Part shown: piece after piece, positions 16,326 through 60,991 of the stretch
How positions within the stretch are numbered: the first letter of the stretch is position 1
How the letters are laid out: every line of letters starts with the position of its first letter
Source: a virus
Reading direction: 5' to 3' (one strand)
Length of the DNA stretch: 64,000 nucleotides
Virus record (IMG/VR): IMGVR_UViG_3300045988_171772
Coordinates: 190,917 to 254,916 of that record
Position numbers and translations under genes: made by a program
Notes under the pieces: model-generated
The model's input: the letters and a program-made list of their open reading frames with translations, nothing else
Told to the model about the DNA's origin: nothing
Databases searched by the model: none

Positions 16326-18848
16326 TCACTCTTCTTCCGTTACAGATTTCGAGACAGTATCCTCATCTGCCGTTTCATCTCTGGCCTCCTCCGAAGATTC
16401 TTTCAGAGTGTCATCATGCATTTTGGAGGTGATCATAAACATCATCTCCTCGGTGATACTGCCAAGATCAAGTTTCTTTACTTCCTCTTGTTCGAAGACC
16501 CATTTCCAAGCTGCCTTCATCGGAGCTTCCTTGTCCGAGGAGACCACTTCATAGGTATCCATAAACTCATTATAGAGATCAAAGAGCTTGTCATAAATCG
16601 GTTTCCGAGAGAGACGATCCACCACAGTGAATCCATGGGTACGATACTGACGGATCGTATCCCGATAGACATACTCGTATTCTCCCTCTACATCAAAGTC
16701 AAGCTCAATGCCCATACCTTTGAGATAGGCAGCGAGAATGTCCACATTGATATTCGTGAAGTTTTCTTCTACCTTGAGCTTTTGGATGTCGAAGGGATCT
16801 CCCGATGCTTTGAGAATCCGATCCAGGGACTTTCTTGCAATGGGAGAAGAACGAGTGAAGAGGTTGTGCTCTGCAATGGTCAGACCCGACACAGCTGCAA
16901 AGAGGTTGTGCGTCTCACCAATCTTGATTGGAGACCGAGAATAGGGAGACAGATTGGATTTCTTGTCATTGCTCTTTGCAGGGACCTGTTTCTTATCAGT
17001 ACGACCAGTGGACCGAGCACTGAAATTCTTATTGGAAGTCTGCTTCAGAAGATACATATATTTGCTGCCGATGACAACCGGCCTCATGATCTTTTTACCT
17101 TTGATCCCAAAGAGATCAATGTAAGCATCATAGGGTTTGATATCCGGCCATTCATCATAGATCTTCCGAAGACAGTCATACCGCATTTTGGAATCCGGAC
17201 GTTTGACGATATAGAACCCATTCTCCTCGACATCCTGGATGAATTTCTTCTTTGCTTCTTCATCCACGATCTCAACCTGGATTCCATCCACATCAAATTT
17301 CTGATCCCAACTATTCCACATCTGGAGGAAGAAGTCATGCTGCTCCAGATTGAGGAGTTCGAGGAATCTCAAAATAACCTGCATCTTATCCTCGATGTCG
17401 GTCATCTTCTTGATCTTCCTCTGAAGTTGTTCTGCGATGAAGTTGATTTCTACTTCATAGAGCTGGTCTGTATTCAGACGACGAATCGAACCAGAGGAAT
17501 TCAGAAGAATGTCGGCGACAACCTTCTCTCCATCCTCGGTTACATAATAGGGCATATCACAGTCATCGACAATCGAGACCTCTTTGGCATTCTCAGTCAT
17601 GGTTTCCGGATTGGAATCCTCACTGAGCTGATCCACGATATTGTCAACGATGTGATTGAAAGACTCCGCAGGCTTCATGCCAAACTTCTCACCTGCATTG
17701 GTGATCTTGGAGATAATACCTTTATCACCATAACGACCTGTGAGTTTGAATCCTTCTTCCAGATCCACCACAGCAATCGTCTTGAAGATGACAACCAGAT
17801 TGGCGAAAGCTCTGTCTTTGTCTTTCCATTTGTATTCTTTATCGTTGAAGCGCTGATACTTTGCATTCAGATAGGATACCTGAGGAGTATAATGAGATCC
17901 AGAGGATTCAATCATCCTGCACATCTCAGACACTTGGGCAGCATACTGGCATTCCTGATCATAATACTTCTTGAGCTGCCGATAGAAGACATTTTCCGGG
18001 AAGGGATCGTCTCCATTGTAGCAGACATCAATGTCATAGATCAGAGAATTCTTCGGAGCAAAATATTCGGTATCGGTATCCGAGATGGTACGAAGTCTTT
18101 TATCCTGGAAGTCAAAGATGGCATGATTCAGATTCACACGGGCTACTGCACATACGGTGGAATTCTTGACATACTCACCCACTTCCGGGAAGCATTTGTA
18201 CTCACCAGGAGCACCATATACATTCTTGAGGATGTCGTTCGAGTTGACAGAGACCCGAACCTCATCCACTTCCACAGATTGGACATCCTTGGCCCATCCT
18301 CTGCGAAGTTTGATGGCATCTTCGATCGTGGCATTGTCCGTCACATACATGACACGGGCATTTTTGCCAATCCGATACTGCATATGCTCATCATAGGAAG
18401 TTGATTTATAGAGTACCTCATTCTGGACGGTATCTCCCTCTCGGAGAGAATCCATCTTGGAGGTATTGTAAGCGAATCCAAACTTTTCGGTCAGATTCTC
18501 AGCGATTGCCTTCTCGATCACATCCCAAGTATCGGTCTCTGCATTGTAGAGAAACATGGAATAGACATGTTTGCCTTCATACTTGGGGATGATCTTCTTA
18601 ACTTCCCACGTCCCTTCCATCTTCTTATAGGCATGAGAATACTTACCAAAGATATTCTCATAACCAGTCAGAATATGGGGGACATCGGGATTCATCATGG
18701 TAAGGAACTGCTTCTCATTCGAAGAAAACATGTAGAGACGGGATGAGTCAACGCCTTCGGGAAATCCTAACAAAGTAGGACCGAAAACTTTCTCCATTTT
18801 GTCTCCCCATTCTTCGTCCATTTTACGAAATTCGTCTGTGCCTGCCAT
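16326..18848 (-). CDS. rpoB: multisubunit RNA polymerase beta subunit, C-terminal half (split beta, 840 aa)
   Basis: Motifs match bacterial beta. SSRLYMFSSNEKQ ~ ANRALMGSNMQRQ. GRYGDKGIISKI ~ GRHGNKGVISKI. DILLNSSGSIRRLN ~ DIVLNPLGVPSRMN. FSARSTGR ~ HARSTGP. KIGETHNLFAAVSG ~ RFGEMEVWALEAYG. The N-terminal beta regions are absent. Confidence 0.85.
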   Translation of the reverse strand: MAGTDEFRKMDEEWGDKMEKVFGPTLLGFPEGVDSSRLYMFSSNEKQFLTMMNPDVPHILTGYENIFGKYSHAYKKMEGTWEVKKIIPKYEGKHVYSMFLYNAETDTWDVIEKAIAENLTEKFGFAYNTSKMDSLREGDTVQNEVLYKSTSYDEHMQYRIGKNARVMYVTDNATIEDAIKLRRGWAKDVQSVEVDEVRVSVNSNDILKNVYGAPGEYKCFPEVGEYVKNSTVCAVARVNLNHAIFDFQDKRLRTISDTDTEYFAPKNSLIYDIDVCYNGDDPFPENVFYRQLKKYYDQECQYAAQVSEMCRMIESSGSHYTPQVSYLNAKYQRFNDKEYKWKDKDRAFANLVVIFKTIAVVDLEEGFKLTGRYGDKGIISKITNAGEKFGMKPAESFNHIVDNIVDQLSEDSNPETMTENAKEVSIVDDCDMPYYVTEDGEKVVADILLNSSGSIRRLNTDQLYEVEINFIAEQLQRKIKKMTDIEDKMQVILRFLELLNLEQHDFFLQMWNSWDQKFDVDGIQVEIVDEEAKKKFIQDVEENGFYIVKRPDSKMRYDCLRKIYDEWPDIKPYDAYIDLFGIKGKKIMRPVVIGSKYMYLLKQTSNKNFSARSTGRTDKKQVPAKSNDKKSNLSPYSRSPIKIGETHNLFAAVSGLTIAEHNLFTRSSPIARKSLDRILKASGDPFDIQKLKVEENFTNINVDILAAYLKGMGIELDFDVEGEYEYVYRDTIRQYRTHGFTVVDRLSRKPIYDKLFDLYNEFMDTYEVVSSDKEAPMKAAWKWVFEQEEVKKLDLGSITEEMMFMITSKMHDDTLKESSEEARDETADEDTVSKSVTEEE

Positions 18849-29786: not shown

Positions 29787-29801
29787 TTCGGTGATAGGCT
29801 T

Positions 29802-30020: not shown

Positions 30021-30030
30021 TAGTGAGATT

Positions 30031-32577: not shown

Positions 32578-32598
32578 AGCAGGAATACTCTCCTTGTA

Positions 32599-37837: not shown

Positions 37838-38608
37838 TTATTCATTGAAATCAGGCAGTGCAGTGGACTCGCCACCCCAAGACTCGTCGACAGTCAGCAT
37901 GACAGTCGGGATCGCAGTCTTGTCAACCTTCGCATCCAGAGCAGTCTGCAGACCATTGACATTGGCGATCTCGTGGGTGTGATCAGCAGCCGCCTTAGCA
38001 TCCAACTGAGCCTGCACGCCAGAGGTAACTCCGGTCATGTAGTTCAGCTCAGTAGCAGAGGCAGTGACACCGAAGGTAGCCGGGGTGACAGAAGACCAGG
38101 TACCAGCACCGGTCAGGAACTTGTCCTGATCGCCCAGAGCGGGAGCCGGAACCAGACCAGTAGCACCTTCAGCCTCGGCAGAAGCGCCGGTCATGGCCTT
38201 CAGGTCAGTGATGTCAGCCATCACATGCTGGTGGGTCTTGTCAGCCTTATTGGCCAGAGCAGCATCCAGACCATCCAGCTTGGTCTTGTCCGCAGCGGAC
38301 ATCAAACCAGCAGTAGAGGTAGTAGCTTCCTCGTAGGTGGTATCCTGATCGGGGATGTTGATCTCCACAGGAGTGCCATCACCCTTGGTCAGAGTCAGCT
38401 TGTGATCATCAATAGAGGCATCGGCCAGATAAGTAGCAATATCCTTGCCATTCTTATCACCCATAGCCTTATTGACGACACCGCTGGTGGCAGACATAAT
38501 CGAGCTCAACTTGGTGTTATCGGAGAAGAAGATACCTTCCGCACGAGAAGCAGGAAGGATAATGTTGCCCTGATTGTCTTTCAGTTGGCGAATATAGTAA
38601 GCCGTGAT
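37838..38608 (-). CDS. tail fibre protein paralogue; the conserved N-terminus extends upstream of the first canonical start
   Basis: The ORF track starts at TTG 38509. The same frame is open back to 38608 and encodes (I)TAYYIRQLKDNQGNIILPASRAEGIFFSDN, homologous to the paralogue N-termini. It contains no ATG, GTG or TTG. An ACG at 38603-38605 aligns with the paralogue ATG. Confidence 0.7.
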   Translation of the reverse strand: MTAYYIRQLKDNQGNIILPASRAEGIFFSDNTKLSSIMSATSGVVNKAMGDKNGKDIATYLADASIDDHKLTLTKGDGTPVEINIPDQDTTYEEATTSTAGLMSAADKTKLDGLDAALANKADKTHQHVMADITDLKAMTGASAEAEGATGLVPAPALGDQDKFLTGAGTWSSVTPATFGVTASATELNYMTGVTSGVQAQLDAKAAADHTHEIANVNGLQTALDAKVDKTAIPTVMLTVDESWGGESTALPDFNE

Positions 38609-38647
38609 TCATATCCCCCAATATATTTGGATTTTATAAACTGAGAC

Positions 38648-39160
38648 TTATTCGAAACTCGGAAGAGCGGTAGTTTCCCCACCCCATGTACGATCCACAT
38701 CCACTTTGTCAGTTGACAGAGAGTTGATCTGAGTCTGTACAGAGGAGGTGACCCCACTCATATAATTCAATTCCTCAGAAGTAGCAGTGATACCGAGATC
38801 TTCGAGAGATCCGATTCCACCACCTTCGACGGTGGGCATAGCCCAAGTACCGTCACCACGGAGGAACATATTCACATTTTCTTTCTTCGGTGCAGGAACG
38901 AGACCTGCAACACCATCTTTTTCAGATGTAGCGCCCTGCATAAGGTCTCCAGCGCCTACGACAGTCCAAGATGCTCCATTGTAGAGATAGAGCTTCTTGG
39001 TTTCCTTGACATAGACACGAAGGCCCTCAGGGCAAATGCCTGAAGTAACCAGTTCATCCCGGTCAGAAAGTGTGTCGAGAATTTCTCGAGCATCGAGAGG
39101 TTTTGTACCTTTGAGGGCAAACCCTGCCGCGACCGAGATGCCTGACAGTTGCAGTGCCAT
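38648..39160 (-). CDS. fibre-associated protein (170 aa)
   Basis: GLVPAPKKENVNMFLRGDGTWAMP motif and the C-terminal tag RTWGGETTALPSFE. Confidence 0.8.
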   Translation of the reverse strand: MALQLSGISVAAGFALKGTKPLDAREILDTLSDRDELVTSGICPEGLRVYVKETKKLYLYNGASWTVVGAGDLMQGATSEKDGVAGLVPAPKKENVNMFLRGDGTWAMPTVEGGGIGSLEDLGITATSEELNYMSGVTSSVQTQINSLSTDKVDVDRTWGGETTALPSFE

Positions 39161-39192
39161 GGCGAAGTTCCCTCACTTTCCCTTATAATTGA

Positions 39193-42100: not shown

Positions 42101-45100
42101 CTCATGGCACCATCTTCCGGAGCAACCGTGAATTCGGCACCAGGCTTCACAATGCCAGCCTTATCAGAAGTAGCGATGTCAACCGAGGTATCATCCAAGG
42201 TAACAGTAGCCCAGGTCCCATCCGACTTCAGGAACTTGTCCACATCGGCACTCACAGGAGCGGGAACCAGACCAGCTTTTCCATCGCCAGTACCGGTAGT
42301 ACCGGTAAAGTTGGAATACACGGTTTCCTTAGGCAGATCGATCTCACTAGAAGATCCATCACCCTTGGTAATCGTGATCTTCGAATTCGCCTGGGTAACA
42401 TCAGAGACATACTGAGTGATATCCTTACCATTCTTATCCTGAGTAGCCTTGGTGGCATTGCCAACCGTAGCATCAGCCAAAGAATCAGAATCCACCTTAG
42501 AAGCCAGAACTTCCGTCAGTCCACTGACCTTATCCTGAGCGATCGAAGCAACAGTGAGCGCTCCGTCTTCACCAACACTGATCTCAGAAGATCCTTTGAC
42601 AATACCAGTGGTGTCACCAGTGGCAATACCAGGCAGATCATCAGATTCCAGTTTGATATCCAGAGCATCCTGCAAACCAGTCACATCAGCGATCTCGTGA
42701 GTATGCTCACTAGCAGCCTTCCCATCAAGAGTCGTCTGCAGATCGGTGACATCACTAATTGCATGACTATGAATAGTGCTCGCCTTTCCACTCAGAGCAT
42801 CAGACAGCCCGTTTACGGAATCCATCTCATGAGTATGAGTAGCGGCAGCGGCTCCCACTTTGGCCAGGGTGATATCCAAGGTCGCAGCAGCAGAGCCATC
42901 GAAAGTGGTAACATTCTCTGGAGTGTTATCACCATTGAAGGTGACAGTCATAGCATTCGTGACCTTAGCAGCCTCAGCAACCTTTGCGGTGTTGAGATCA
43001 GTAATGTCAGCAATGTCATGGGTATGATCAACATCAGCCTTAGCAGCAATAGCAGCAGGCAGACCGTTGATCTGCTCAGCATCCAGAGTGATTTCAGGGA
43101 TGTCTTTCAAAGTATGGGTATGCGCAGCGTCAGCCTTGCCAGAAAGAGCCGCTGTGAGACCAGTGACTTTCTCCTGAGCAATCCCGGCGACAGTCATCAC
43201 ACCTTCACCATCCACCGCGATCTCAGAAGAGGATTTCACGAGACCAGCAGTTTCAGAAGTGGCGACATCGTAGGTGGTATTGGTATCGACCGGAGTGCCC
43301 CAAGTGCCATCGGCTTTCAGGAACTTGTCCTGATCACCCTGCGCAGGAGCAGGAACCAGTCCAGCTTCACCAGCTCCCTCAGCAGAAGCACCAGTGAAGT
43401 CTTTATAGACGGTACCAGCAGGCAGCTCCACATCGGAAGTGCTAGAGTCACCCTTCGCAATCTTCAGAGTATTACCCTGCAGAGTCACACCAGCAACATA
43501 CTCGGTGATGGGTTTACCATTGGTATCCTGAGAAGCAGCCTTAACGGTAGCTTCCGTCAGATCCTCGGTATCGACCTTACCAGCCAGAGTAGTTTCCAGA
43601 TCAGTGACATCCGCAATTGCGTGAGTATGGACACTAGCGGCTTTACCCGCAAGAGCAGTATCCAGACCGGTCACATCAGAAGTAGCATGAGTATGAGTGA
43701 CATTCGCCTTAGCATCCAGGAGACCCTGCAGATCAGTGATGTCGACAGCTTCATGCGTATGCTCAGTATCTGCCTTACCATCAAGGGCTGTGGTCACATC
43801 CGAGCTCTTGGCATAGTCACTCATATAACCGGGGATATTGGAATTGAAGGTGCTCTCAGTGGCAAGATTCACACGAATCGTTTCCGATCCGATGATCTTA
43901 TTTCCAGCATTGTACCATTCCACGGTCACATACCAACCGACATACTTGCCAGCGGTAGAAGAAGAACCGAGATAGGTCCAAGCAGAGTCACCAGCATCGT
44001 AGGTGGCAACCGGCAGTCTGGTCTCAACATAGTTGCGTCCCAGAGAATCCGGATCACCAAACGCAGTCACTTCGCCTTCCGTGATCTCATCTTTCAGGGC
44101 GATACGGTAATCCGTAGCATCCGCAGGAGCATAAGCACGAAGAGCCATGGTCACAGTATTCGGATCCTCTGCCCCATCCTGGGGAGCCCAGGGAGTCAGG
44201 GTAGAATACATGACACGAATCTCTTCATCACGATAAGAGACGCGAGTGTCTTCGAACAGGCCATCGGTAATCTCAAACTTGTTAGAAGCCTGAGACATGG
44301 TGGCAAAGGTATTCTCCAGGTTGGTAACCTTCGACTGCGGGATAGACGAAACCGTCATCACGCCTTCTCCGTCAACCTGGATCTCAGACGAAGCTTTCAC
44401 AAGACCAGCGATCTCGCTAGTCGCCACGTCGTAAGTCGTGTCATTGTCGACAGGAACCGCCCAAGTGCCATCGGCTTTCAGGAACTTGTCCTGATCGCCC
44501 TGCGCAGGAGCAGGAACCAGTCCTTCTTCACCAGCACCTTCCGCAGAAGCACCAGTAAAGGCATCATACACAGTTCCCTGAGGGAACTGAATCTCACTAG
44601 AAGATCCATCACCCTTGGTCACAGTGATCTTGGTATTGTCCGAGGTGACATCCGCCACATAGGTCGTGATGTCTTTGCCGTTTTTGTCAGAAGTGGCCTT
44701 ACCAGCTTCACCGACCACAGCAGAAGACAGAGTATCGGTCAGATCGGTAATGTCAGCAGCCTTATGGGTATGCTCGGCATCCGCCTTAGCACCCAGGGCA
44801 TCTGTCAAACCGGTGACATCATCCATCTCATGCGTGTGCTTAGTATTGGCTTTACCAGCCAGATCATCAGCAACAGCACTCTGGACAGCAGCATCGAAAT
44901 CAGTGATTTCAGACGCTTCATGTGTATGAACAGCAGCAGCCTTAGCATCCAACTGAGCCTGCACACCAGAGGTAACTCCAGTCATGTAGTTCAGTTCTTC
45001 CGCAGTGGCTGTAATGCCGGCAGCTTCCAGGTCAGCAGGAGGTGCATCAACCCAGGTGCCAGCACCAGACAGAACCTTATTCTGATCACCAGCCTTGGGA

Positions 45101-46635
45101 GCCGGAACCAGACCAAAGGTACCATTTTCGCTGTCAGTCGCACCTTCGAATTCAGAATAAGTACCTTCCGCACTGATGGGGACATTGATAGAAGTACCAT
45201 TGCCCTTGGTCACAGTGAGGGTAGTACCATCCGCAGAGATGCGATAGACATAATTAGAAATATTTTTGCCAGTGGAGTCCTTCACGGCAACATCCGCTTT
45301 GGCCACATTGGCATTCGCAATGTCAGAGATCTGATCAATGGTGTGATCATGGTCAGCCAACGCCTTCTCATCAAGAGCATCCTGAAGACCAGTGACATCG
45401 GCGATTTCATGGGTGTGAACGGCTTCGGCTTTACCCGCAACCGTAGTCTCCAATTCTTCGATCGATGCTTTGATCTCCTGATCAGACATGACGAGATTAT
45501 CGGTCATTTGCTTCAGACCAGTGACGTCATCGAAGCCATGAGTATGCTCGGCATTCGCCTTACCCTCAAGCTTCGTATTCAGATCTTTGACAGCAGTATC
45601 GACTTTTGTAGAGAGATCGCCCATAGCGGTATGCATTTCGGATCCCTGAGCATCGATCTTCCCCTCCAGATCCGTTTTCGCGGTCTCGAGATTCTGATCA
45701 GCTTCATCGACCCGGGCATCCACAGCGGCGATATCCTCGGGAATTCCGTTGATTTCCTCAGCAGTCAGAGTAACTCCGGCATCAGCAAGAGAAACAGCAG
45801 GCTTCTCCCAAGTGCCAGTAGCACTCAGGAACTTACCTGCATCTGCGCGACAAGGAGCCGGAACCAGACCAGCTTTACCATCCTCAGTGTCCGTTGCCGG
45901 AACCAGATTGTGAATATACTCTGTGGTCACAATATTACCGTTACCCTTGGTAACCGTAATCTTGTTATCCGAGATAGTCACATTGCGGACGTACTTGCCG
46001 ATCGGGGTGCCATTGGCATCCGTCTTCGCAGAGTCAGCTTCCTCAGCGTGTTCGGCGTTGCGGACACTCAGGGTATCCAGACCACTGATATCGTCGACGG
46101 TATGAGTATGCTCGGAGAGAGCTTTAGAATCCAAAGCATCCTGCAAACCTTCGACATCAGCAATCAGGTGAGAGTGATCCACATCGGCCTTTTTCTCCAG
46201 CTCAGCATTGGTGTCATCAGGAACATTGGGCAGTTTCAGAAGCTGGGCTCTAGCAACAGCGCTAGTGGTCACCTGAGCATTCTCATCGGTGATCACAACA
46301 CGGTTTTTCTGAAGCCCAACAATCCGGTCAGCCGTGATGTTGTTGACACCCAGGGTACCACTTTCGTCATTGTAATGAACCATGTTGTTTTCATCAGACG
46401 AAGTGATCTTGTCCTGCTGGCTTTCAATCCGAGTCAGCTGATTCTCCAAGTAATTCATGGTTACTGCAGAATCTGCGTCGGTGCCCTGTGCTACATGCAA
46501 TGATGCAGTGGATCCATCCTTGTTAAGAACGCGGAAAGAATCTGCATCAAACTTGATAGTAGCATGGACATTTTTATTTTTGGTACCAAAAGACATTTCC
46601 GTCTTCGTGGTACCGTCCAGATTGTTCATGACCAT
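39193..46635 (-). CDS. giant modular tail fibre protein (2480 aa)
   Basis: A single uninterrupted ORF. It holds 8 copies of GLVP[AG]P...KFL...GTW, 8 copies of AT.E.AG[IL]VK.S.E..V...G....., 24 copies of H.H...D[IV][TS][GD]L, and a non-repetitive ~300-aa C-terminal domain. Confidence 0.9.
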   Translation of the reverse strand: MVMNNLDGTTKTEMSFGTKNKNVHATIKFDADSFRVLNKDGSTASLHVAQGTDADSAVTMNYLENQLTRIESQQDKITSSDENNMVHYNDESGTLGVNNITADRIVGLQKNRVVITDENAQVTTSAVARAQLLKLPNVPDDTNAELEKKADVDHSHLIADVEGLQDALDSKALSEHTHTVDDISGLDTLSVRNAEHAEEADSAKTDANGTPIGKYVRNVTISDNKITVTKGNGNIVTTEYIHNLVPATDTEDGKAGLVPAPCRADAGKFLSATGTWEKPAVSLADAGVTLTAEEINGIPEDIAAVDARVDEADQNLETAKTDLEGKIDAQGSEMHTAMGDLSTKVDTAVKDLNTKLEGKANAEHTHGFDDVTGLKQMTDNLVMSDQEIKASIEELETTVAGKAEAVHTHEIADVTGLQDALDEKALADHDHTIDQISDIANANVAKADVAVKDSTGKNISNYVYRISADGTTLTVTKGNGTSINVPISAEGTYSEFEGATDSENGTFGLVPAPKAGDQNKVLSGAGTWVDAPPADLEAAGITATAEELNYMTGVTSGVQAQLDAKAAAVHTHEASEITDFDAAVQSAVADDLAGKANTKHTHEMDDVTGLTDALGAKADAEHTHKAADITDLTDTLSSAVVGEAGKATSDKNGKDITTYVADVTSDNTKITVTKGDGSSSEIQFPQGTVYDAFTGASAEGAGEEGLVPAPAQGDQDKFLKADGTWAVPVDNDTTYDVATSEIAGLVKASSEIQVDGEGVMTVSSIPQSKVTNLENTFATMSQASNKFEITDGLFEDTRVSYRDEEIRVMYSTLTPWAPQDGAEDPNTVTMALRAYAPADATDYRIALKDEITEGEVTAFGDPDSLGRNYVETRLPVATYDAGDSAWTYLGSSSTAGKYVGWYVTVEWYNAGNKIIGSETIRVNLATESTFNSNIPGYMSDYAKSSDVTTALDGKADTEHTHEAVDITDLQGLLDAKANVTHTHATSDVTGLDTALAGKAASVHTHAIADVTDLETTLAGKVDTEDLTEATVKAASQDTNGKPITEYVAGVTLQGNTLKIAKGDSSTSDVELPAGTVYKDFTGASAEGAGEAGLVPAPAQGDQDKFLKADGTWGTPVDTNTTYDVATSETAGLVKSSSEIAVDGEGVMTVAGIAQEKVTGLTAALSGKADAAHTHTLKDIPEITLDAEQINGLPAAIAAKADVDHTHDIADITDLNTAKVAEAAKVTNAMTVTFNGDNTPENVTTFDGSAAATLDITLAKVGAAAATHTHEMDSVNGLSDALSGKASTIHSHAISDVTDLQTTLDGKAASEHTHEIADVTGLQDALDIKLESDDLPGIATGDTTGIVKGSSEISVGEDGALTVASIAQDKVSGLTEVLASKVDSDSLADATVGNATKATQDKNGKDITQYVSDVTQANSKITITKGDGSSSEIDLPKETVYSNFTGTTGTGDGKAGLVPAPVSADVDKFLKSDGTWATVTLDDTSVDIATSDKAGIVKPGAEFTVAPEDGAMSIASIEQSKVTGLVDALGAKADVTHTHEIANVNGLQDALDAKLTASTLPIATTDNTGVVKASAEISVGVDGTMTVDSIAQSKVADLETTLAGKAATEHTHKAADITDLNSAVVAEAGKTTNALSVTFNGGTQAENNVTFDGSAAQTLDITLAKIGAAAAEHTHETADVTGLDTALAGKANSVHTHEMASVTGLSAALEAKADSEHTHTVSQITDIASATVAAAGKATNDKNDKDITTYVADVTFAENKITVKKGDDSSSEIELPKGTVYSNFTGASSDAAGGAGLVPAPAQGDQDKFLKADGTWAVVKAGSDVAVATEETAGIVKASSEIAVAGDGAMSITAVSQDKVTGLTDALGGKAASVHTHAISDVTDLQTTLDNKLEASDLVVATDSTPGLVKASTEVTVGVDGALGIGTIEQAKVNGLTAALGAKADTEHTHTVSDITDLNLSAASVAEAAKATTDKNEKDITTYVADVKKSEDNKKIVITKGDSSSTEIELPEAATYSAFTGASAEGAGSDGLVPGPAIGDQDKFLKADGTWAVPVDTNTTYAPATTEVAGIVRASTEITVDGEGIMTVSSLAQSKVEGLTDALSGKANATHSHTASDISDLSEATVKAATQDTSGNALTSYVKSLSVSGSKLTVTKGDETSDELDLPSGGTGVSDPFTGTDGSNPGKVGLVPAPAAADANKFLASDGTWKIIQGAGGEVSIKYTSQVPTTAAVGGINEGYVPPSSGIDILDLIYKLLHPYVAPELTATMLPRNGGTVGIATTQNITGVRVNLSNAHGNKIMSYQVYDVDSDFDSHTALGELYSEDYENGFAEGAQTVTLNSPYRMTQASNHKYLTVRAMDLDGNESIVKTASFNFVETYYWGTAPGETVIDETFVNGDDDKTTQASAKGTKVVSVNNPTTQFVYFCAPKSYGEIKSVKDQNQLDNTSEFTKNKTEVTINGRDYYVYHNDPFMGEMTFTFSY

Positions 46636-51460: not shown

Positions 51461-51703
51461 GGTCATCCAGGAGATGGACTCATGAGAATCGAATTTTCGG
51501 TATCCGATCTTTTCTCCAGTGGATGACTTCGTAGTCTTAGACCCACAGAAAGTGACGACCAACATATCTTATCAGTGCCTCATCTCATAGTGAGATGGGT
51601 CTTACCCTATCCATTCGGTATCTCGTCTGAACCCATAGTTGGTGATGGTGACGACCGATAAGCCTAGCGTCTGGAAGACATTCTATCACTTTCATACTAT
51701 AAT

Positions 51704-51734
51704 AATATACATAAATTTTTGAAGTAGTTTTCGA
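51704..51734 (-). promoter_or_regulatory. class I promoter-like motif
   Basis: On the minus strand, TCGAAAA-N18-TATATTATT, at the head of the 51414-51700 non-coding unit. Confidence 0.5.
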
Positions 51735-52915: not shown

Positions 52916-54223
52916 TTAATTCACAGAGTCTTTCTTCTTAAAGAGATCCGCATAGGATTTCTCAGAAGATTCCATATTCTGGATGTCCACCATTTCGTCA
53001 TTGAGTTTATCCATATTGGCATAGACGATAATGCGATAGGTAAGCTCAGGATCAGAGTTGTGCACTGTCAATCTCATGAGACTCCAATCGACAGTAAAGT
53101 CTTTACCTTCTTCCAGTTTATCCTGACCTGCAAATACCAATACTCGGAAAAGAATATCGCTGGGGATATCCGAGGTATCATACTTACGAATGACTTGGAT
53201 ATACTGGGGATGAATGACACAATGAAGATCCAGTGTATCATCTAGATGATAATTCTCCGCTTCTGTCTGGAAGATGGTTGTGGTATACATCTTATATCCA
53301 TTCAGAAGCATGTTATTATCTTCGAAGAGTCTATCCATAGTATAGATCGGAATATAGGAGGTTGTATTCTCACTGACATCCGATCGAATCTGGATATTAA
53401 ACTTATGTGGAGTCATCTCATTTCCATACATGAGAAATACACCAGGCAGATTGAATTCACACCGGATACTGAAAGAGATTTCATAGGTATCATCGACCAT
53501 TCCTTTCTTACTACCCTGGTCAATATTGAGATCTTCTAGGGTAATCATGGCAGGGACTCGATAATACATAAAGAATTCCGGTTGAGAGGTGGAATTCCGA
53601 ATCTTATAGGTGATTGGATAGGAAGAATGACTCTGAAGATAATGCATCATAAGGGGAATATGCTCAGGTTTTGTAAGATCAAAACCATTCATACTCGCCA
53701 TATAGTGAATCAACTCATAGGGTATGACCGATTCCAAGGCAAAGGATCTCTGGTAAGGACCTCCCCATTGCATATTATTCTGCATCATCTTATAGACATC
53801 CAACTGATCCACCAATGTCTGAGTTCGAATGTTACACTCAAATGGAATGGCATCTCGATTCATTCTGAATCCAATGATGATCCGATTCTTCTGATCTTTA
53901 ATCAGAGGATAGACAGACTTGACTGAGATGGCATTGCTATTGGCATAGACATTCGAAGTCAACATGGTATCCGTAAACGGAATATCCTTATTATTCTCAA
54001 ACGAAGGTCTGAGTAAGAAGAGAGGTTTTTCTCTTTTCTTTAACTCTGCATCCGTGAAGAATGCCTGATGCGCTTCCTCTCGGAATACCAACTGAGAAGA
54101 AACGTGAATATAGTTAAAGTAATCCTTAGGAAAGTATCGGAGCAATTCCTGCTCCAACGCTTTGATGACATTACCATAGGTGCATGATGAGGATGTAGAC
54201 CCCATCGAATACAAAATGGGCAT
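52916..54223 (-). CDS. hypothetical protein (435 aa)
   Basis: Long ORF followed by the 17-bp-stem hairpin 52860-52903. Confidence 0.8.
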   Translation of the reverse strand: MPILYSMGSTSSSCTYGNVIKALEQELLRYFPKDYFNYIHVSSQLVFREEAHQAFFTDAELKKREKPLFLLRPSFENNKDIPFTDTMLTSNVYANSNAISVKSVYPLIKDQKNRIIIGFRMNRDAIPFECNIRTQTLVDQLDVYKMMQNNMQWGGPYQRSFALESVIPYELIHYMASMNGFDLTKPEHIPLMMHYLQSHSSYPITYKIRNSTSQPEFFMYYRVPAMITLEDLNIDQGSKKGMVDDTYEISFSIRCEFNLPGVFLMYGNEMTPHKFNIQIRSDVSENTTSYIPIYTMDRLFEDNNMLLNGYKMYTTTIFQTEAENYHLDDTLDLHCVIHPQYIQVIRKYDTSDIPSDILFRVLVFAGQDKLEEGKDFTVDWSLMRLTVHNSDPELTYRIIVYANMDKLNDEMVDIQNMESSEKSYADLFKKKDSVN

Positions 54224-54864: not shown

Positions 54865-54871
54865 CCTAAAT

Positions 54872-54903
54872 AATATATAGACTTTATACAAAGACATTTC
54901 GAA
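54872..54903 (-). promoter_or_regulatory. class I promoter-like motif
   Basis: On the minus strand, TTCGAAAT-N18-TATATTATT. It lies directly after terminator 54909-54966 and directly before palindrome 54853-54864. Confidence 0.5.
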
Positions 54904-54973: not shown

Positions 54974-55438
54974 TCACTCAATTCGTTTCCACATATTAAC
55001 CGATAGATAGGGAGGCATATTATTATGTGGAGATGAGGATCCAACAGAACCAGTCTGTGTGGTCTCGGAATTGAGTCTATCACCGAGAAGGCTAGTGGCA
55101 TCGCCTCCTCCATAACTTCCAATTTTAAGATGAGTGTATTCATGACTATGAGAGGGAATCTCCTCTAAAGATAATGTGTGAGTTGCTTCTCCTCCAATAG
55201 ATCCATTGGTATAGGATGAGCTACTACCAAGAAGAAATACTCCCTCTATCTTTTCCCATACTCCCCCGAATAATTGGGATGGAGATGCATCTTGTGTGGA
55301 GATGTAGATAGCTCCCACTGGAAAGAAGCTAAGTTTATCAAAAGTGGTATTGTCTTTGAAGTAGATTCCTTCTGCTCTAGTGATGGGGAATACAGTAGTT
55401 CCATCGTTCTGTTGAAGGATACGAAACTTACTAGACAT
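54974..55438 (-). CDS. phage tail collar domain protein with the fibre N-terminal adaptor motif
   Basis: N-terminus MSSKFRILQQNDGTTVFPITRAEGIYFKDN. HTLSLEEIPSHSHEY and the C-terminal PHNNMPPYLSVNMWKRI match the tail-collar (Collar/MdpB-like) pattern ...lt..emP.H.H... hnN.qPyl.vn..i. Confidence 0.8.
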   Translation of the reverse strand: MSSKFRILQQNDGTTVFPITRAEGIYFKDNTTFDKLSFFPVGAIYISTQDASPSQLFGGVWEKIEGVFLLGSSSSYTNGSIGGEATHTLSLEEIPSHSHEYTHLKIGSYGGGDATSLLGDRLNSETTQTGSVGSSSPHNNMPPYLSVNMWKRIE

Positions 55439-55616
55439 TCTCTAGTCACTCTTTCTTGTATAAAGTATATAGTCTCATAGGAAGGATCTGTATAACAAAG
55501 TAAGGCTATGAAATTGTTTTTTTTTCATTTGGATGAAGTTTTTGATAGGAAGAGAAATAAAAAAGATAGGCTATATTGCAAGCCTATCTTTTTATCTGTT
55601 ATAGAGAGATTCTGGA

Positions 55617-56048
55617 TTACCAGCAGAAGGTGAGAGATTCGGGATACAAAGAGTCAACCTTGACGACATTGACCTGGATGTCGTTACTGTCTCCCCATTT
55701 CTGGAGGTTGTCAAAGAAATACTTCCGGAACTCATCCGAAAGTTTCACATCGTTACCGTCCAATCCATAAGAGATGACGGTCTCGGTATCAATCACGACG
55801 CTGAAGGCACCAGTGGAAGCATAATACTCCAGTTTCTCAGTGAGTTTCTTGATGATCTTGTCCATGATGAGATCATAGTTCTCATAGATACTGGTCTTCT
55901 CTTTGGCGATCTTGTGGAGTTTCTCTCCGAGGGTTTCATTCGAACGTACTACATCGGAAGTAGAAGCGCTTCCTTCCATCTTTCGATTCGGACTGGTTGC
56001 GATAAGTCCATTGGCAAGTCCGTCAATGGTATGACCAAAGATACTCAT
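55617..56048 (-). CDS. hypothetical protein (143 aa), last gene of the PPK-like operon
   Basis: ORF with GGAGGAATAA upstream, 4 nt after the previous stop. Confidence 0.75.
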   Translation of the reverse strand: MSIFGHTIDGLANGLIATSPNRKMEGSASTSDVVRSNETLGEKLHKIAKEKTSIYENYDLIMDKIIKKLTEKLEYYASTGAFSVVIDTETVISYGLDGNDVKLSDEFRKYFFDNLQKWGDSNDIQVNVVKVDSLYPESLTFCW

Positions 56049-56052
56049 AGGG

Positions 56053-56403
56053 TTATTCCTCCGGATTTCTGAGTGTGATTAAGAATATTCCATGAAAGAC
56101 CTGAGTCTCCAAATCCTTCATGGATGCATCCTGAATCTTAAATGTGACATCAAAAGAAGATTTTGGAATTACCTGATGAATCCGAGTGCGGATAACAGGG
56201 ATTGCTGTTTCGATCATCTTCTTCTGAATATTAAGAGCTCTTCTTTCACTTCCAATCTCTACAGAGTTGAATCCTATTTCCAATCCTTTGATGATACATT
56301 GAAGATCATTGAGAATTTTACCCATATCGGAGAAGTCAGGACTCAGAGTGCTATTGGAAGTGAATCCATTGAATCCTATATGAAATTGCACTTCATACTT
56401 CAT
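56053..56403 (-). CDS. hypothetical protein (116 aa)
   Basis: Its start overlaps the stop of the PPK-like gene, indicating coupling. Confidence 0.75.
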   Translation of the reverse strand: MKYEVQFHIGFNGFTSNSTLSPDFSDMGKILNDLQCIIKGLEIGFNSVEIGSERRALNIQKKMIETAIPVIRTRIHQVIPKSSFDVTFKIQDASMKDLETQVFHGIFLITLRNPEE

Positions 56404-58586
56404 TATCTACGAACCCTCCATTTCAGAGACAGTTTATCCAACTGATAGTTGCAGCTATCCCAAATCTTGTTGATATATTCATCAATGGGAACACCTTCTC
56501 CGATATCCACCATATTATCAAAGATATTGAATCTCTGATATACATTGGTGTGCTTCCCGAGAGGAAGCTTCAGGAGAATCTCCAATCTCCTCTTCATGTT
56601 TCTCTTCATGAGATCTGCAGAGGAGATAAAGACTTCATCTCCGATCATATAGAGACGACTATGCTCAAGATATTTGGATACCTTGGATCTTGCCTCCATA
56701 TTCTTGGATACAGGAGAGAAGACAATGGAAGTACGAATCATGAATCGAGCATTTCCAGAATAGTTTGGAATCACAAAGCTATCCAGGAAAGAAGGATCTG
56801 TGAAGTTATTGCACTTCAGGAAGATATCCTTATCGTCACTAACGGCAACTCTCATGGATTCTTTGAGTTTTCCTTTGGCAGAGATGGGAGTGATGAAGAG
56901 ACTCCGATTGTTGAAATCCATCCACCAGTCATATCCAGATTTGAAATCTCCTCCACTAAAGAGAATTTTAAAGAGATATAGAAGCTCCAGATTGATCTTT
57001 TCTTCCGTGGTGATATAATGAAGATCCACATACTGACCCATCGTCTTGGTATTGAAGTTCCCTGTGGAGATCATCGAAAGAAGAGAATTGTCATCATAGA
57101 TGATCTGCCAAGCTTTCATGTGAACTTTCAATCCATGGCAGGAGTGCTTGACATGAACACCAGCTTCTTTCAATTCCTTGATAATCTTCTGATTTGCCTT
57201 CTCATCTCCACGAGCAGTGGGTTCGATATAAGCATATACGAAGACTCCCTTTCGGACAAGATCTTCGAGTCTTTCAACGAGATACCGATTCTCTCCAAGA
57301 CGATAGAGAGAAATGAAGACAGTCCGGATCTTTTTCTTCTGAAGATTCTCCAGAGGATGGAAGAGAAATCTCCAAGGAACTCCGGGAGTCTCAAAGAGTC
57401 TGGATTTATTCGGATAACTGCTGATCAGACTATCATACCAATTTGTATATGTCAGATTGGTATTGACCTTATTCTCCACAGACTTTTCCTTCATCTTGTC
57501 AATGAGATTCTTGAAGATGGAATCATCCGGAAGGGTGGATCCATCATTCTTACTGATGAAGAGAATCGTGTTGGGAATGTTATGGACAAACTCATCCACA
57601 GCAAGAATCTCCGGATAAGGTACCTGAAAGAATGTAGCATTCCCAAAGGAAGGACGTTTCTTCAGAGTATATTTGGAGATCTCCTCCGAATAAGAAAACT
57701 GACTGGGACGAGGATAGGAAATAACTGCAGAATATCTCATGATCTGATTGCTGGTATTGACGACCAGATCATAGTCAGCATCCTGACCAACTTCATCCAC
57801 TCGTGCATTGGGAATGCATCTTGCAAAGGTTGGAAGAGTGAAATAATTCGGATTCTCAAAAGACTGAGATTTCTTCAGATAGTCTTCCTTCCATTCCGAT
57901 ACATGGCTCCGGAAGTATTCCGATAGATCAAAGTCTTCTTCCACCAGAGGAAGATCGATGCAATCCTCAATAGGAGCACCATCTTTGATCATACCAGCAC
58001 CAGGGAAGAACTTCTTCACTTCGTAGAAATACCGAAGATCTACACCAGGCTCGTTATGGTGAGCGACGCTATCATAATAGAGCTTCGGATACTTGTTAAA
58101 TCCTTCTCTATTCTTGTCGGTAGAGGGATCCATTCTCTTTGTATTCCAATCATAGGATGTATGAATGGGATAGAATGCAAAGAGACCTTTCTCATGAACC
58201 TTGGCGAAGTTTCTAAAGACGTAGGGATACGTCTTTTGCCAGGTATCATAATACTTCTTGATGAAGCTGTGGAGTTCGATCGCCATATAGGTAAGAAACT
58301 TCTGGACATGGATATCGATCTCCGATTTATATTTCGGATTTGTGATCTTGGGATAATTGACAGAGAGGAATTCCATCAGATTATCCATGGCGATTTTCGT
58401 ATAATTCAGATAGGATGCAGGATCATCACTGACATGCATCCTTCCATACTCATAGACTCTGACAGCAAAGTCTATGGTGCCTGTGTAACGATCAATAGCA
58501 AGAGCTCCCTCTTCCGATACATGACGTTGCGTTTCATTATCGAAATACTCCTGAATATCCATGATCGTTTTGCTCATTTCATCCAT
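56403..58586 (-). CDS. ppk: polyphosphate kinase 1 (PPK1)-like protein: canonical C1/C2 catalytic domains with a divergent ~370-aa N-terminus
   Basis: FLFHPLENL ~ LLHHPYESF (phospho-His motif). ISLYRLGENRYLVERLEDLVRKGVFVYAYIEPTARGDEKANQKIIKELKEAGVHVKHSCHGLKVHMKA ~ TLYR..DSPIV.AL..AA..GK.V.V.VELKARFDEEANI.WA..LEEAGVHV.YG..GLKTHAK. STGNFNTKTMGQYVDL ~ GTGNYN.KTA..YTD. KYLEHSRLYMIGDEVFISSADLMKRNMKRRLE ~ RFLEHSRIY.F....YIGSADWM.RNL.RRVE. Confidence 0.8.
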   Translation of the reverse strand: MDEMSKTIMDIQEYFDNETQRHVSEEGALAIDRYTGTIDFAVRVYEYGRMHVSDDPASYLNYTKIAMDNLMEFLSVNYPKITNPKYKSEIDIHVQKFLTYMAIELHSFIKKYYDTWQKTYPYVFRNFAKVHEKGLFAFYPIHTSYDWNTKRMDPSTDKNREGFNKYPKLYYDSVAHHNEPGVDLRYFYEVKKFFPGAGMIKDGAPIEDCIDLPLVEEDFDLSEYFRSHVSEWKEDYLKKSQSFENPNYFTLPTFARCIPNARVDEVGQDADYDLVVNTSNQIMRYSAVISYPRPSQFSYSEEISKYTLKKRPSFGNATFFQVPYPEILAVDEFVHNIPNTILFISKNDGSTLPDDSIFKNLIDKMKEKSVENKVNTNLTYTNWYDSLISSYPNKSRLFETPGVPWRFLFHPLENLQKKKIRTVFISLYRLGENRYLVERLEDLVRKGVFVYAYIEPTARGDEKANQKIIKELKEAGVHVKHSCHGLKVHMKAWQIIYDDNSLLSMISTGNFNTKTMGQYVDLHYITTEEKINLELLYLFKILFSGGDFKSGYDWWMDFNNRSLFITPISAKGKLKESMRVAVSDDKDIFLKCNNFTDPSFLDSFVIPNYSGNARFMIRTSIVFSPVSKNMEARSKVSKYLEHSRLYMIGDEVFISSADLMKRNMKRRLEILLKLPLGKHTNVYQRFNIFDNMVDIGEGVPIDEYINKIWDSCNYQLDKLSLKWRVRR

Positions 58587-58632
58587 ATAATGACCTCCTT
58601 AAGATGTGTGAATGAATATCTCATATCAAAAT

Positions 58633-58663
58633 AATATATAAAGAAATACCCATTCAATTTCAA
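58633..58663 (-). promoter_or_regulatory. class I promoter-like motif upstream of the PPK-like operon
   Basis: On the minus strand, TTGAAAT-N18-TATATTATT, ~45 nt upstream of ATG 58586. Confidence 0.5.
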
Positions 58664-58684
58664 TTTACAAAGGAGTGTGTACCA

Positions 58685-59236
58685 ATGGTAGAATGTATTA
58701 AGAAGGAATTTCTGAAAGAGACCGTTGAGAATGCCTGGAAGAATTACAAGTTCGAAGATGTGATCATTCAGAGTGTCAACTCAATCTTTACAAAAGCTTA
58801 TACCAACATGATCATGAAGATCAATCGACTCGGAGAGACACCGACCTTTGATTATTCCAGAATTGGATGTGCTGGTATCACCGGTAGTGTAGAGATTGCC
58901 AATAAAGCTATCTATAATAAGGAGAATGAACTCAAAGGACCGGAAGATCTTGCTAAGAGTATCTCGATTGCGATTGAGAAACTTAAAGAGGCTGGATATG
59001 AGGTTCGCATTATTACCGACAGAATCAGCTTTGATCTCAAAGATGGTGGTAAGCTTCCGGAGTTCTTCTTTTCTCTCTATGTGGCTCCCTTCAATGTGGA
59101 GGAATATGCAGACGAAGCTGCTACCTTTAGTAGAGCCGAAAAATGTCCTGTGGTGACAGAAACCACACAGGAAGAAATTCTGAATGCTCTGCTGTCTGAT
59201 AAATATCAGATGGAAAAAGAAGAGGAAGACGATTAA
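58685..59236 (+). CDS. hypothetical protein (183 aa) with an acidic C-terminus
   Basis: Plus-strand ORF with AAAGGAGTG upstream, divergent from the PPK-like operon. Confidence 0.75.
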   Translation: MVECIKKEFLKETVENAWKNYKFEDVIIQSVNSIFTKAYTNMIMKINRLGETPTFDYSRIGCAGITGSVEIANKAIYNKENELKGPEDLAKSISIAIEKLKEAGYEVRIITDRISFDLKDGGKLPEFFFSLYVAPFNVEEYADEAATFSRAEKCPVVTETTQEEILNALLSDKYQMEKEEEDD

Positions 59237-59296
59237 AGAAATAAAATACCCAGGAAGATTCAAGTAGTATCATTGAATCTTCCTGGGTATATTTTC

Positions 59297-60991
59297 TCAT
59301 TTTATTTCCTTTCGTTTTCTTTGGATTTCAACCTCTGTATCTTTAGAGGATTTCTTCTTAGAATTCGATACATTTGTATGATCTTTCTGGTGTCTCTTGA
59401 CTGCAGGATCCTTTTTGGTTGCACTCATAGGAGCTTCTATATGCATCTCCTTCAAGAGAGATTTGGCAAAGTCGATCTGACCGCTATCTCCACAAGAAAG
59501 ATTGGCAATCTCCTTGATAGCTGCAATACAATCCTCTTTGTCTGTATAGGCATCCATGATGGCATAACACATAGACCGACTTGTCTCATACATAGCACAC
59601 CGAATGGGGAAATTATCATCGGTGGAGGGATCTACATTTTTGCAGAGCCAATTCAAGAGAATCATATTGTGTTGCTCAATGGCTACCATATAATAGATGG
59701 AAGCATTCTCAATGACCATTCCTTTAGACATCAGATAGTCCATGAGATCTGCTTTGGTCTTATATCCAAGAATAGCAGGTCCTGGATTTCTACAGGCAAG
59801 TCTACCAAAGATAGATCCTTCTTTATTGAAGCTGACCTCATGCTCAATGTTAAATTTGATGAGCTCTTCATAGCATCCATTGAGATTGAAGAGAGGAGAC
59901 CATGGTTCTCTCACATAGGTATTGATATCAAAGCAGTCATTGAAGGCATCCATTAGATTGGTAGATCTACTACTGGAGCATTCAGAGACACAAGTTTGAT
60001 AGAGAAGCTGAATATAGGAAGGAATCTTTGCAGTATTCCCATCAATGGTTTTCATATTATTCTTAAGCTCAAGAAGAATACCACGAATGTAATCTCCTAC
60101 ATATCCATCTTTTCCTTTTGATTTCAATACCATAAAGAGCATGGTAACTCGATCTTCTACCTTATTCCTTCTCATAAAGATCTCCATAGGATGATCCTTA
60201 TGGGAAGGACCATGATACTCTGTATCCAGATAGGGATATTGCTTATCCACCACAGTCAAGAATAGATCAGCATAGCTATTCTTTAACTTCTTAGGATAGA
60301 GATTATCTGGAATCAATTCAGAGAGTCTGACCATCTTGGTCTTCCATTCAGAATCAAACATCTCCCAGATAGGCTCATGATAGAATTTGATGTAATACAT
60401 GATCTTGTGATTCAGATTCTCATCTTCATGAGTCTCAAATGCATCGAATAACTTTGATACAGATATTGCTATGCTGATATTGGAAGAATGACCCTTACGA
60501 AAATAAAAGAATCCATAGATCCTGGAAGATAATGGATCTACGGATTCCACCTTTGTTGGATTTGTAGAATATTTCTCAGGATATCTAGCCGCCATCAGCA
60601 TAGCAGAAAGGAAGGTAAAAATATAATACTCCAGACAGATATTGACGATCTCTGCCTGGTATTTCTTAACAGCTCTCTGTTTATCGAGAGTGGTAGAATT
60701 GTCACTCTGAAGAAGTGTGATGAGATTCTTATAGGATTCCTCATGCTTGTATCGTTGCGCATTGAGATACTCGATATGATCAGAAGATTCTTCAATGAGT
60801 CTCTTCATCTTACGGATATCAGTAAGAAGGAATTGATTCTGCAAAAACTCCTTCTTTTTATCGGCAGACTCAAATTTCTGAGCCCATTTTCCGAGGCTAT
60901 AGAATCTTGTAAAGAAGTTCTTATTTGTGTTATGCTCGACTTTATCATTGACTTCTTGGTAGATTCTTTCTCTCCATTCATATAGAGTCAT
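59297..60991 (-). CDS. hypothetical protein (564 aa) with a Lys-rich C-terminal tail
   Basis: Long ORF with GAAAGGATGAAA upstream, divergent from the beta-prime gene. Confidence 0.8.
   Translation of the reverse strand: MTLYEWRERIYQEVNDKVEHNTNKNFFTRFYSLGKWAQKFESADKKKEFLQNQFLLTDIRKMKRLIEESSDHIEYLNAQRYKHEESYKNLITLLQSDNSTTLDKQRAVKKYQAEIVNICLEYYIFTFLSAMLMAARYPEKYSTNPTKVESVDPLSSRIYGFFYFRKGHSSNISIAISVSKLFDAFETHEDENLNHKIMYYIKFYHEPIWEMFDSEWKTKMVRLSELIPDNLYPKKLKNSYADLFLTVVDKQYPYLDTEYHGPSHKDHPMEIFMRRNKVEDRVTMLFMVLKSKGKDGYVGDYIRGILLELKNNMKTIDGNTAKIPSYIQLLYQTCVSECSSSRSTNLMDAFNDCFDINTYVREPWSPLFNLNGCYEELIKFNIEHEVSFNKEGSIFGRLACRNPGPAILGYKTKADLMDYLMSKGMVIENASIYYMVAIEQHNMILLNWLCKNVDPSTDDNFPIRCAMYETSRSMCYAIMDAYTDKEDCIAAIKEIANLSCGDSGQIDFAKSLLKEMHIEAPMSATKKDPAVKRHQKDHTNVSNSKKKSSKDTEVEIQRKRKEIK

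Follow-up and report, generated by a model that had tools for sequence, protein, structure and literature searches.

The window analysed here is a 64,000-nucleotide (nt) stretch of viral DNA (positions 190,917 to 254,916 of IMG/VR record IMGVR_UViG_3300045988_171772) and is part of a jumbo phage genome. On its minus strand, at 56403..58586 (stop codon included), lies a gene for a 727-amino-acid (aa) protein related to polyphosphate kinase 1 (PPK1), as indicated by Pfam matches to the C1 and C2 domains, PPK1 matches among PDB sequences, the conservation seen in relatives and the ratio of non-synonymous to synonymous substitution (dN/dS). The open reading frame (ORF) starts at an ATG at 58586 and is preceded by a Shine-Dalgarno sequence, AAGGAGG, 7 nt 5′ of the ATG (58594..58600, minus strand). 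An earlier note on this DNA had described the same 727-aa ORF together with a set of PPK1 motifs in its C-terminal part; the ORF is confirmed and all of the motifs are present in the translation. Throughout, residues with the prefix Ec follow E. coli PPK1 numbering, whereas unprefixed residues refer to the 727-aa window protein.

The C-terminal ∼330 aa are assigned as a bona fide PPK1 C1+C2 catalytic core. The C1 domain (aa ∼396–545; 56952..57401, minus strand) and the C2 domain (aa ∼546–676; 56559..56951, minus strand) were delineated from the Pfam families PF17941 and PF13090, respectively, from the alignment to the E. coli enzyme (1xdo) and from residue mapping. PP_kinase_C_1 (PF17941) matches aa 416–542 with E = 2.6e-24 (86.1 bits against a cut-off of 25.7), and PP_kinase_C (PF13090) matches aa 584–675 with E = 6.3e-15 (55.5 bits against a cut-off of 25.8), so that the C1+C2 assignment already made in the earlier note holds with both domains above their gathering scores. 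A HMMER search of PDB sequences retrieves only PPK1s (E = 4.5e-24 to 1.9e-20), with E. coli PPK1 aligning to aa 408–673 at E = 4.5e-24, and comparison of a family profile with a cellular PPK1 profile in hhalign gives E = 2.3e-38 across 249 columns. The AlphaFold model of the protein has a predicted local distance difference test score (pLDDT) of 72 overall and of 80–93 in the C-terminal half. When the full model is submitted to Foldseek, the top six matches are PPK1 structures (E ∼1e-22 to 1e-19), followed by PLD3, PLD4 and F13 at E ∼1e-11 over 340–445 columns. The duplicated PLD fold is present, with one catalytic histidine in each half (H489 and H642), and is also picked up by PLDc_2 at E = 1.6e-7.

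The alignment to 1xdo (HMMER) places H489 (codon 57120–57122), in the motif GLKVHMK, at EcH435 (GLKIHAK), and H642 (codon 56661–56663) at EcH592. In the E. coli enzyme, for which the residue roles given here are drawn from secondary sources, H435 is the phospho-histidine, H592 is the general acid, and E623 and D470 are their hydrogen-bond partners (PMC3163519); the H435A/H592A variant serves as a dead enzyme (PMC6537752). Further residues could be mapped in C1 (R429, R459, K487, H489, K491, N510, N512, Y519 and D521) and in C2 (R618, H642, R644, the SSADLMKRN stretch, R667 and E669). Residues H489, H642, E669, D521, R429, R459, N510, Y519, R618, R644, S655/S656 and R667 are invariant in 13/13 family members, and in E. 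coli numbering the invariant set comprises R375, R405, K433, H435, K437, N459, N461, Y468, D470, R564, H592, R594, R621 and E623. The same 14 positions are kept by 12 remoter relatives, except for EcR405 and EcN461 in a few, and H489, H642, E669 and D521 are unchanged in all 13 family members and all 12 distant relatives. The residues that position the nucleotide phosphates (EcR375, R405, N459, Y468, R564, R594 and R621), which have been probed by mutagenesis in M. tuberculosis PPK1 (PMC3215733), are all invariant within the family. The mutagenesis of that enzyme covered eight residues, five of which affect only the synthesis of nucleoside triphosphates (NTPs) from polyphosphate (polyP) (PMC3215733), and all eight are invariant in the 13 family members. 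In comparison with the orthologue of a ∼92%-identical relative (L003), dN/dS is 0.08 in C1C2 and 0.19 over the whole gene, and the net charge of C1C2 is basic (+5 to +18). As the complete active site is invariant, the enzyme is considered catalytically competent for PPK1 chemistry. The phospho-histidine itself had been sought in the motif FHPLENL, an assignment that has to be withdrawn: FHPLENL pairs with FEHVLELL (∼350) of the E. coli enzyme, and relatives have K, A or Y in place of its histidine. Because EcH435 aligns to H489, which is invariant, while the FHPLENL histidine varies, H489 is the predicted phospho-histidine.

The N-terminal ∼370 aa had been held to bear no resemblance to PPK1, which is correct for a middle region of ∼270 aa and incorrect for aa ∼28–125 (58212..58505, minus strand). 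The latter segment is judged to be homologous to the PPK1 N domain, the ATP-binding domain of EcPPK1 (PMC3215733), in a highly diverged form that retains long helices and N69 at the position of EcN45; the evidence comes from family-wide Pfam matches, profile searches and the AlphaFold model. In Pfam, PP_kinase_N (PF13089) is not found in the window protein's own sequence; it matches 7/9 family N-terminal halves (best E = 3e-4, below the gathering score) and is the only family to recur. A profile of the N-terminal half, searched against 1.84 billion representative proteins, recovers five family clusters, one fragment and six further proteins, and all six of the latter are PPK1-type proteins or a PP_kinase_N fragment matched collinearly via their N-termini (E = 2e-7 to 3e-4). 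The single N-half match given by hhalign, individually non-significant, sets DRxxGTIDFAxRVYENGR...YIxFTKIAFDNIMEFLSVRYP against NRELSWLxFNxRVLEEA...RLxFLSIxxSNLDEFFMVRV, such that the bacterial signature NRELSWLxFN reads DRxxGxIxFA, and NLDEFF reads NIMEFL, in the window family. Within the family EcF17, R20, N45 and E48 are invariant, V21 and F49 each show one conservative substitution, and EcW14, N18, R35 and D47 are changed. The helices of this region are modelled with pLDDT 70–90; the model of aa 1–398 as a whole has a pLDDT of 52 and gives no Foldseek match at E ≤ 0.001.

The position of the PPK1 head (H) domain is occupied by a family-specific middle region (aa ∼126–395, ∼270 aa; 57402..58211, minus strand), defined by negative profile searches and by its invariant residues. 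No family member matches the head domain PF02503 at E ≤ 10, the comparison of the middle region with PPK1 head domains in hhalign is negative, and a custom head-domain hidden Markov model (HMM) is negative on the family, although it recovers orthodox PPK1s of phage records at 2.4e-57 and 2.5e-47. In the window protein the region gives no other Pfam match either. AlphaFold confidence is low here. Invariant residues, including PYPEIL, together with a dN/dS of 0.31 (0.27–0.31 for the N and middle regions; L003 orthologue), indicate a real domain under purifying selection, which would be either a scrambled head domain or a replacement of it. Three further observations on this region were set aside. 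A collinear ‘FP’ micro-match to LFPGY is non-significant and was not counted. In Foldseek the full model aligns with PPK1 over ∼720 columns, but this was rejected as evidence for a head domain (TM score 0.36), since the N-half model has a pLDDT of 52 and lacks a fold match of its own. The middle region is acidic (net charge −3 to −13), but so, to the same degree, are the head regions of cellular enzymes (mean −9), which makes the charge uninformative. At the other end of the protein, a conserved C-terminal tail, WDSCNY..LD..L..KW (aa 677–727; 56403..56558, minus strand), is recognized by its invariant residues (Y704, W709, S711, C712, N713, Y714, D717 and W723) and has a dN/dS of 0.10.

Upstream of the gene, at 58631..58663 (minus strand), TTGAAA-N19-TATATTAT forms a bipartite motif of promoter-like type whose core resembles that of the early promoters of phage AR9; 6 nt and then a purine come after it, and the motif is supported by enrichment, context and conservation. 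The TATATTAT core occurs 14 times in the window against 3.1 expected. There are six perfect copies of TYGAAA-N19-TATATTAT, all intergenic and in gene orientation (12779–12811, 29754–29786, 29915–29947, 51702–51734, 54870–54902 and 58631–58663, all on the minus strand), and the core by itself recurs at 5585, 6400 and 26636; a further copy, at 52845, departs from the upstream element by one mismatch. The gene's own copy, whose core reads ATATATTAT, stands 45 nt 5′ of the ATG, and TTTATATATTAT-(6N)-A at 58631–58642 (minus strand) agrees with the extended AR9-type consensus, with a purine for the transcription start 6 nt on. In five phages whose proteins are 40–46% identical, TTTATATATTAT is kept 45–53 nt upstream of the orthologue within intergenic sequence that has otherwise diverged; the recurrent ‘class I’ promoter element of the earlier note is thus substantiated. 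A spacing of 19 nt does not resemble that of sigma-70 promoters, and a sigma-70-type scan gives 7 sites against 9.8 expected, none of them upstream of the PPK1-like gene. The mapped early promoter of AR9, used by the injected virion RNA polymerase (RNAP), is AAATATATATTAT-(6N)-G+1 (PMC5312081). The window motif shares with it the TATATTAT core, the 6 nt plus purine, the AT-richness and the high conservation, and the phage of the window, too, encodes AR9-like multisubunit RNAP subunits; it differs in adding TYGAAA 19 nt upstream, which is not in the published AR9 consensus, and in being without the AAA prefix. The bipartite motif is probably the early promoter class of this phage. Since its core matches the mapped early promoter of the AR9 virion RNAP, the PPK1-like gene would, by analogy, probably be expressed early, in the first minutes of infection. 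The early-type promoter is seen in the sub-lineage of the window and in L010, a contig carrying a more distant homologue. Elsewhere in the window, a TATATTAT core stands 36 nt upstream of the start of a tubulin/FtsZ-like gene, and a segment of ∼900 bp without long ORFs (29105–30030) carries two of the promoter motifs, followed by small ORFs only (78 aa, 29431–29667, minus strand, Gly/Ala-rich and hydrophobic; 29 aa, 29802–29891, minus strand). These may represent small early proteins or non-coding transcripts.

Full-length relatives of the window protein form 23 clusters at 40–96% identity. The close ones lie on metagenomic contigs of 250–272 kb, and all six distinct contigs examined resemble jumbo-phage DNA. 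At least six jumbo-phage contigs carry the gene intact and in synteny, and for this reason it is taken to be an old, lineage-wide feature of uncultured jumbo phages with multisubunit RNAPs. Divergence, conserved synteny and derived residues found clade-wide lead to the rejection of a recently acquired, host-derived auxiliary gene. The weak N-domain matches also led to a set of head-less PPK1-like proteins of 522–693 aa (P0114 and P0117–P0124), which have the same N+C1+C2 core and the same derived glycine at EcF406 (9/9) as the window protein and which all keep the catalytic set. P0114 and P0117 additionally have Met at EcH454 and a C-terminal WxxCN(F/Y) tail motif like that of the window protein, whereas most of the head-less proteins keep His at EcH454. 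Their middle part is shorter and cannot be aligned to that of the window protein: the spacer from EcN45 to EcR375 is 180–275 aa in the head-less proteins and 360 aa in the window protein, a span of 180 to 360 aa for the phage clade as a whole (330 in E. coli), so that the shortest versions cannot hold a full head domain. Three head-less genes were located, on contigs of 110–237 kb with phage hallmarks, namely an RNAP β′-like gene and a DNA ligase in L008, gp25-like and T4-baseplate-like genes in L010, and, directly upstream of the PPK1-like gene in both L009 and L010, a homologue (32–33% identity) of a 435-aa gene of the window. Thymidylate-kinase-family genes are found 3–4 kb upstream of the head-less genes in L009 (6325–7050) and L010 (6555–7226) and may point to a neighbourhood of nucleotide metabolism.

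Bacterial PPK1s (1XDO/1XDP; P. gingivalis 2O8R; PF13089+PF02503+PF17941+PF13090; TIGR03705) share with the window protein the order N, C1, C2 and the full residue set, at ∼25–30% identity over the C-terminal ∼35% only; the window protein differs from them in having no recognizable PF02503, Met at EcH454 and Gly at EcF406. PPK1 had been described as unusual in phages, and indeed only 16 of 50,697 phage records (INPHARED) match it at all, most of these being unverified contigs. The only cultured-phage PPK1s found are those of Vibrio phages vB_VcorM_GR11A and GR7B, which likewise represent a PPK1-type gene, annotated ‘polyphosphate kinase’, in a phage of ∼200 kb. In contrast to the window protein, they are orthodox and host-type in appearance, with all four Pfam domains (N, 1.7e-28; middle, 4.4e-45; C1, 2.2e-67; C2, 3.3e-56), and are ∼27% identical to it in the C-terminal half only. 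No cultured phage with a head-less or head-replaced PPK1-like protein was found. The other ‘phage’ records with PPK1 (MT835512.1, L005 5290–7491; CAKLQF020000010.1; and others) are mostly unverified gut contigs or contigs of 115–144 kb labelled ‘Acinetobacter phage MD-2021a’ with an orthodox ppk; such records may be bacterial DNA mislabelled as phage. A near-identity DNA search of window positions 54–62 kb against the same 50,697 records gave zero matches, and an IMG/VR pattern scan did not find relatives. PHROGs has no family for the PPK1-like protein or for any of its four neighbours, PADLOC gives just a weak, generic PLD (DrmC) match for the protein, and Rfam has no match over 55300–59400.

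Downstream, the PPK1-like stop overlaps the start of a 116-aa gene (TAATG; 56053..56403, minus strand), and a 143-aa gene (55617..56048, minus strand), preceded by GGAGGAA, starts 4 nt after the stop of the latter. Both are of no known family (no match for the 116-aa protein and no significant match for the 143-aa protein in Pfam, PHROG, PADLOC or NCBIfam). A bidirectional hairpin terminator with a 13-bp stem (55560..55593) closes the unit. The overlap and the 4-nt gap agree with the translational coupling described in the earlier note. Its description of the gene as the head of a three-gene operon applies to the tightly packed unit in this window and does not extend to relatives: the two small genes are present only in L003 (the 143-aa one as 138 aa), the 116-aa gene is missing from L001, L006 and L007, whose PPK1-like proteins are 40–46% identical, and the PPK1-like gene is followed by opposite-strand genes in L001, by a different 185-aa gene in L006 and directly by a gp10-like gene in L007. 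A conserved functional three-gene operon is rejected by these gene contexts, and the coupled downstream genes appear to be accessory and lineage-specific. The conserved neighbourhood consists instead of a 564-aa gene, a divergent 183-aa gene, the PPK1-like gene and then the baseplate region. The 183-aa gene (58685..59236, plus strand) holds the same position in L001, L003, L006 and L007, and the 564-aa gene upstream (59297..60991, minus strand) is 27–30% identical in L001, L006 and L007 and is present in L003; both are of no known family, with no family match and no match among PDB sequences. A 435-aa protein of the window (52916–54223, minus strand; phrog_21946) is 85% identical to its counterpart in L001 (10308–11609), whereas the PPK1-like and 564-aa proteins are 46% and 30% identical, respectively, between the two, indicating very uneven divergence or recent exchange.

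The wider content of the window includes an RNAP β-like subunit (16326..18848) that is ∼29% identical to the subunits of PBS1/AR9, its closest match, with remoter kin in Staphylococcus phage S6, Listeria phage LPJP1 and Yersinia phage phiR1-37. The window also encodes GyrA, GyrB, giant tail fibres with phage-tail-repeat (PTR) units, a gp10-like baseplate protein and a tubulin/FtsZ-like protein. The tubulin/FtsZ-family gene (25440–26600, minus strand; Pfam Tubulin, E = 3e-14) is possibly PhuZ-like, in an AR9/PBS1-related phage, and adjoining GyrA-like (848 aa) and GyrB-like (805 aa) genes at full length (30031–35016, minus strand) make up a complete type II topoisomerase pair. One PTR protein has 2480 aa and 15 phage-tail-repeat units (39193–46635, minus strand); the GC content at 38000–46000 is 0.49–0.52 against ∼0.42 elsewhere, and long antisense ORFs in this repeat region (e.g. 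41482–46503, plus strand, 1673 aa) are probably artefacts of repeats or composition.

Our tentative reading of the locus is that the gene encodes a strongly diverged histidine phosphotransferase of PPK1 type, made early and mainly consuming polyP, with accessory genes downstream. An NTP would bind between the N domain and C1/C2, and H489 would take up its γ-phosphate, with H642 acting as the acid, and pass it to the end of a polyP chain, or the reverse, in a ping-pong manner. The head domain would have been replaced by the family-specific module of ∼270 aa. Expression from a virion-RNAP-type promoter would allow the polyP store of the host to be converted, in the manner of a nucleoside diphosphate (NDP) kinase, to ATP, GTP and other NTPs and deoxynucleotides (dNTPs) for phage RNA polymerases and replication. 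PPK1 is reversible and can use polyP to phosphorylate almost every NDP and dNDP (PMC3215733). The polyP-to-NTP direction is favoured, although weakly, since the gene is probably an early one in a phage that supplies RNA polymerases of its own and has ∼270 kb to replicate. Several points weigh against this reading. The direction of net flux is not readable from sequence, and PPK1 enzymes generally favour polyP synthesis, as stated in a passage of PMC8776046. On the NCBIfam PPK1 equivalog model TIGR03705 the protein scores 131.4 bits, against a cut-off of 465.85. At EcF406 the whole family and 10/12 wider-clade proteins have Gly, and the other two (P0112 and P0113) have Asp. EcH454 is Met in the window protein; this residue is buried in the hydrophobic core of C1 (PMC3163519), and at the equivalent position of M. 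tuberculosis PPK1, H510A is inactive and H510Q works (PMC3215733), with Q or N also found there in two cellular PPK1s of our sample. As the head domain is unrecognizable, the oligomeric state and activity are uncertain: the active dimer of EcPPK1 is formed by H–C1 contacts (PMC3215733), and the phage enzymes would therefore dimerize differently, act as monomers or use a partner. As to early expression, the AR9 match is confined to the promoter core, AR9 is only a remote relative of the phage, and the L008 and L009 homologues lack the motif in their upstream regions.

The same chemistry could run mainly in the opposite direction, that is, in the synthesis of polyP from ATP or GTP early in infection, which we regard as somewhat unlikely. 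It might provide the phage with polyP for its own needs, for instance where the host has little or no PPK1, store phosphate released from host nucleic acids, trigger host responses that depend on polyP, such as Lon-mediated proteolysis, or lower host NTP pools. An intact PPK1 active site serves either direction, the forward preference noted above applies here, and phages P1 and fd are reported to require polyP in work cited in a passage of PMC2435150. Against it, ATP spent on polyP would compete with the nucleotide demand of a ∼270-kb phage, the residues that M. tuberculosis PPK1 needs for the polyP-to-NTP reaction alone are all invariant, and the window genes suggest no polyP-using partner. 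A larger departure would be a neofunctionalized PPK1 scaffold in which the phospho-histidine chemistry is kept and the middle module redirects the acceptor or donor, for instance to a protein, a modified nucleotide precursor, linear nucleoside tetra- or pentaphosphates or a phage-specific substrate, or tethers the enzyme to a phage structure. The exchange of the head domain for a constrained family-specific module, the variable N-to-C1 spacer (180 to 360 aa), the substitutions at EcF406 and in the N domain, the equivalog score far under threshold and the constant position of the gene beside baseplate and virion genes are in agreement with such a change. We nevertheless consider it improbable: the residues positioning the nucleotide phosphates and the histidine are all unchanged, the basic C1C2 suits a polyanionic substrate, and an alternative substrate is without positive evidence.

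It is far less probable still that the protein is not a kinase and is instead a nuclease or phosphodiesterase of the PLD superfamily, similar to NucT, DrmC or PLD3. The matches in this direction are PLDc_2 as above, DrmC (E = 1.2e-5; PADLOC) and NucT (E = 2.4e-4; NCBIfam), all of them weak, along with the Foldseek hits to PLD3, PLD4 and F13; they are accounted for by the known PLD parent fold that PPK1 C1 and C2 share, and PPK1-specific profiles score better by 10–17 orders of magnitude. Moreover, the PPK1-specific EcR375, R405, Y468, R564 and R621, which lie outside the HKD core, are kept, as is the N domain. Equally remote in our estimation is a catalytically idle structural or virion protein, or a recent host capture in decay. 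The location beside baseplate and tail-fibre genes and the strong sequence divergence would suit either, but a dN/dS of 0.08 on the catalytic half and an active site invariant across proteins of 22–46% identity argue against loss of function, the intact and syntenic occurrence in at least six jumbo-phage contigs argues that the gene is old, and the promoter is of early rather than late type.

Polyphosphate is a large store of phosphate and energy in bacteria, and some phages are reported to require it for lytic growth. The jumbo-phage reviews consulted mention neither polyphosphate nor PPK, none of the literature consulted links polyphosphate kinase with jumbo phages, and the manipulation of polyP by phages is essentially undescribed. 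What is new here is a phage-specific clade of head-less or head-replaced PPK1 with an early-type promoter, whereas the chemistry, the fold and the existence of phage-borne PPK1 are already known. The composite view, that an old lineage PPK1 with its head domain deleted or swapped, and fired early in the sub-lineage of the window, serves as a phosphagen system or as a retargeted scaffold, is in our estimation unlikely to hold in full. From the sequence, this phage lineage probably manipulates the phosphate and energy store of its host. If the composite view is true, polyphosphate would become a substrate of host takeover by phages in either role, and as a phosphagen system tailored to the phage the enzyme could, by polyP-driven regeneration of NTPs and dNTPs, feed phage transcription and replication from the first minutes of infection. 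The clade offers a concrete candidate for the early takeover of energy and nucleotides by jumbo phages. The compact variants of 522–574 aa could be of interest as minimal ATP-regeneration enzymes, and the clade as a whole constitutes a natural experiment on the purpose of the PPK1 head domain, be it dimerization, tunnel formation or processivity.

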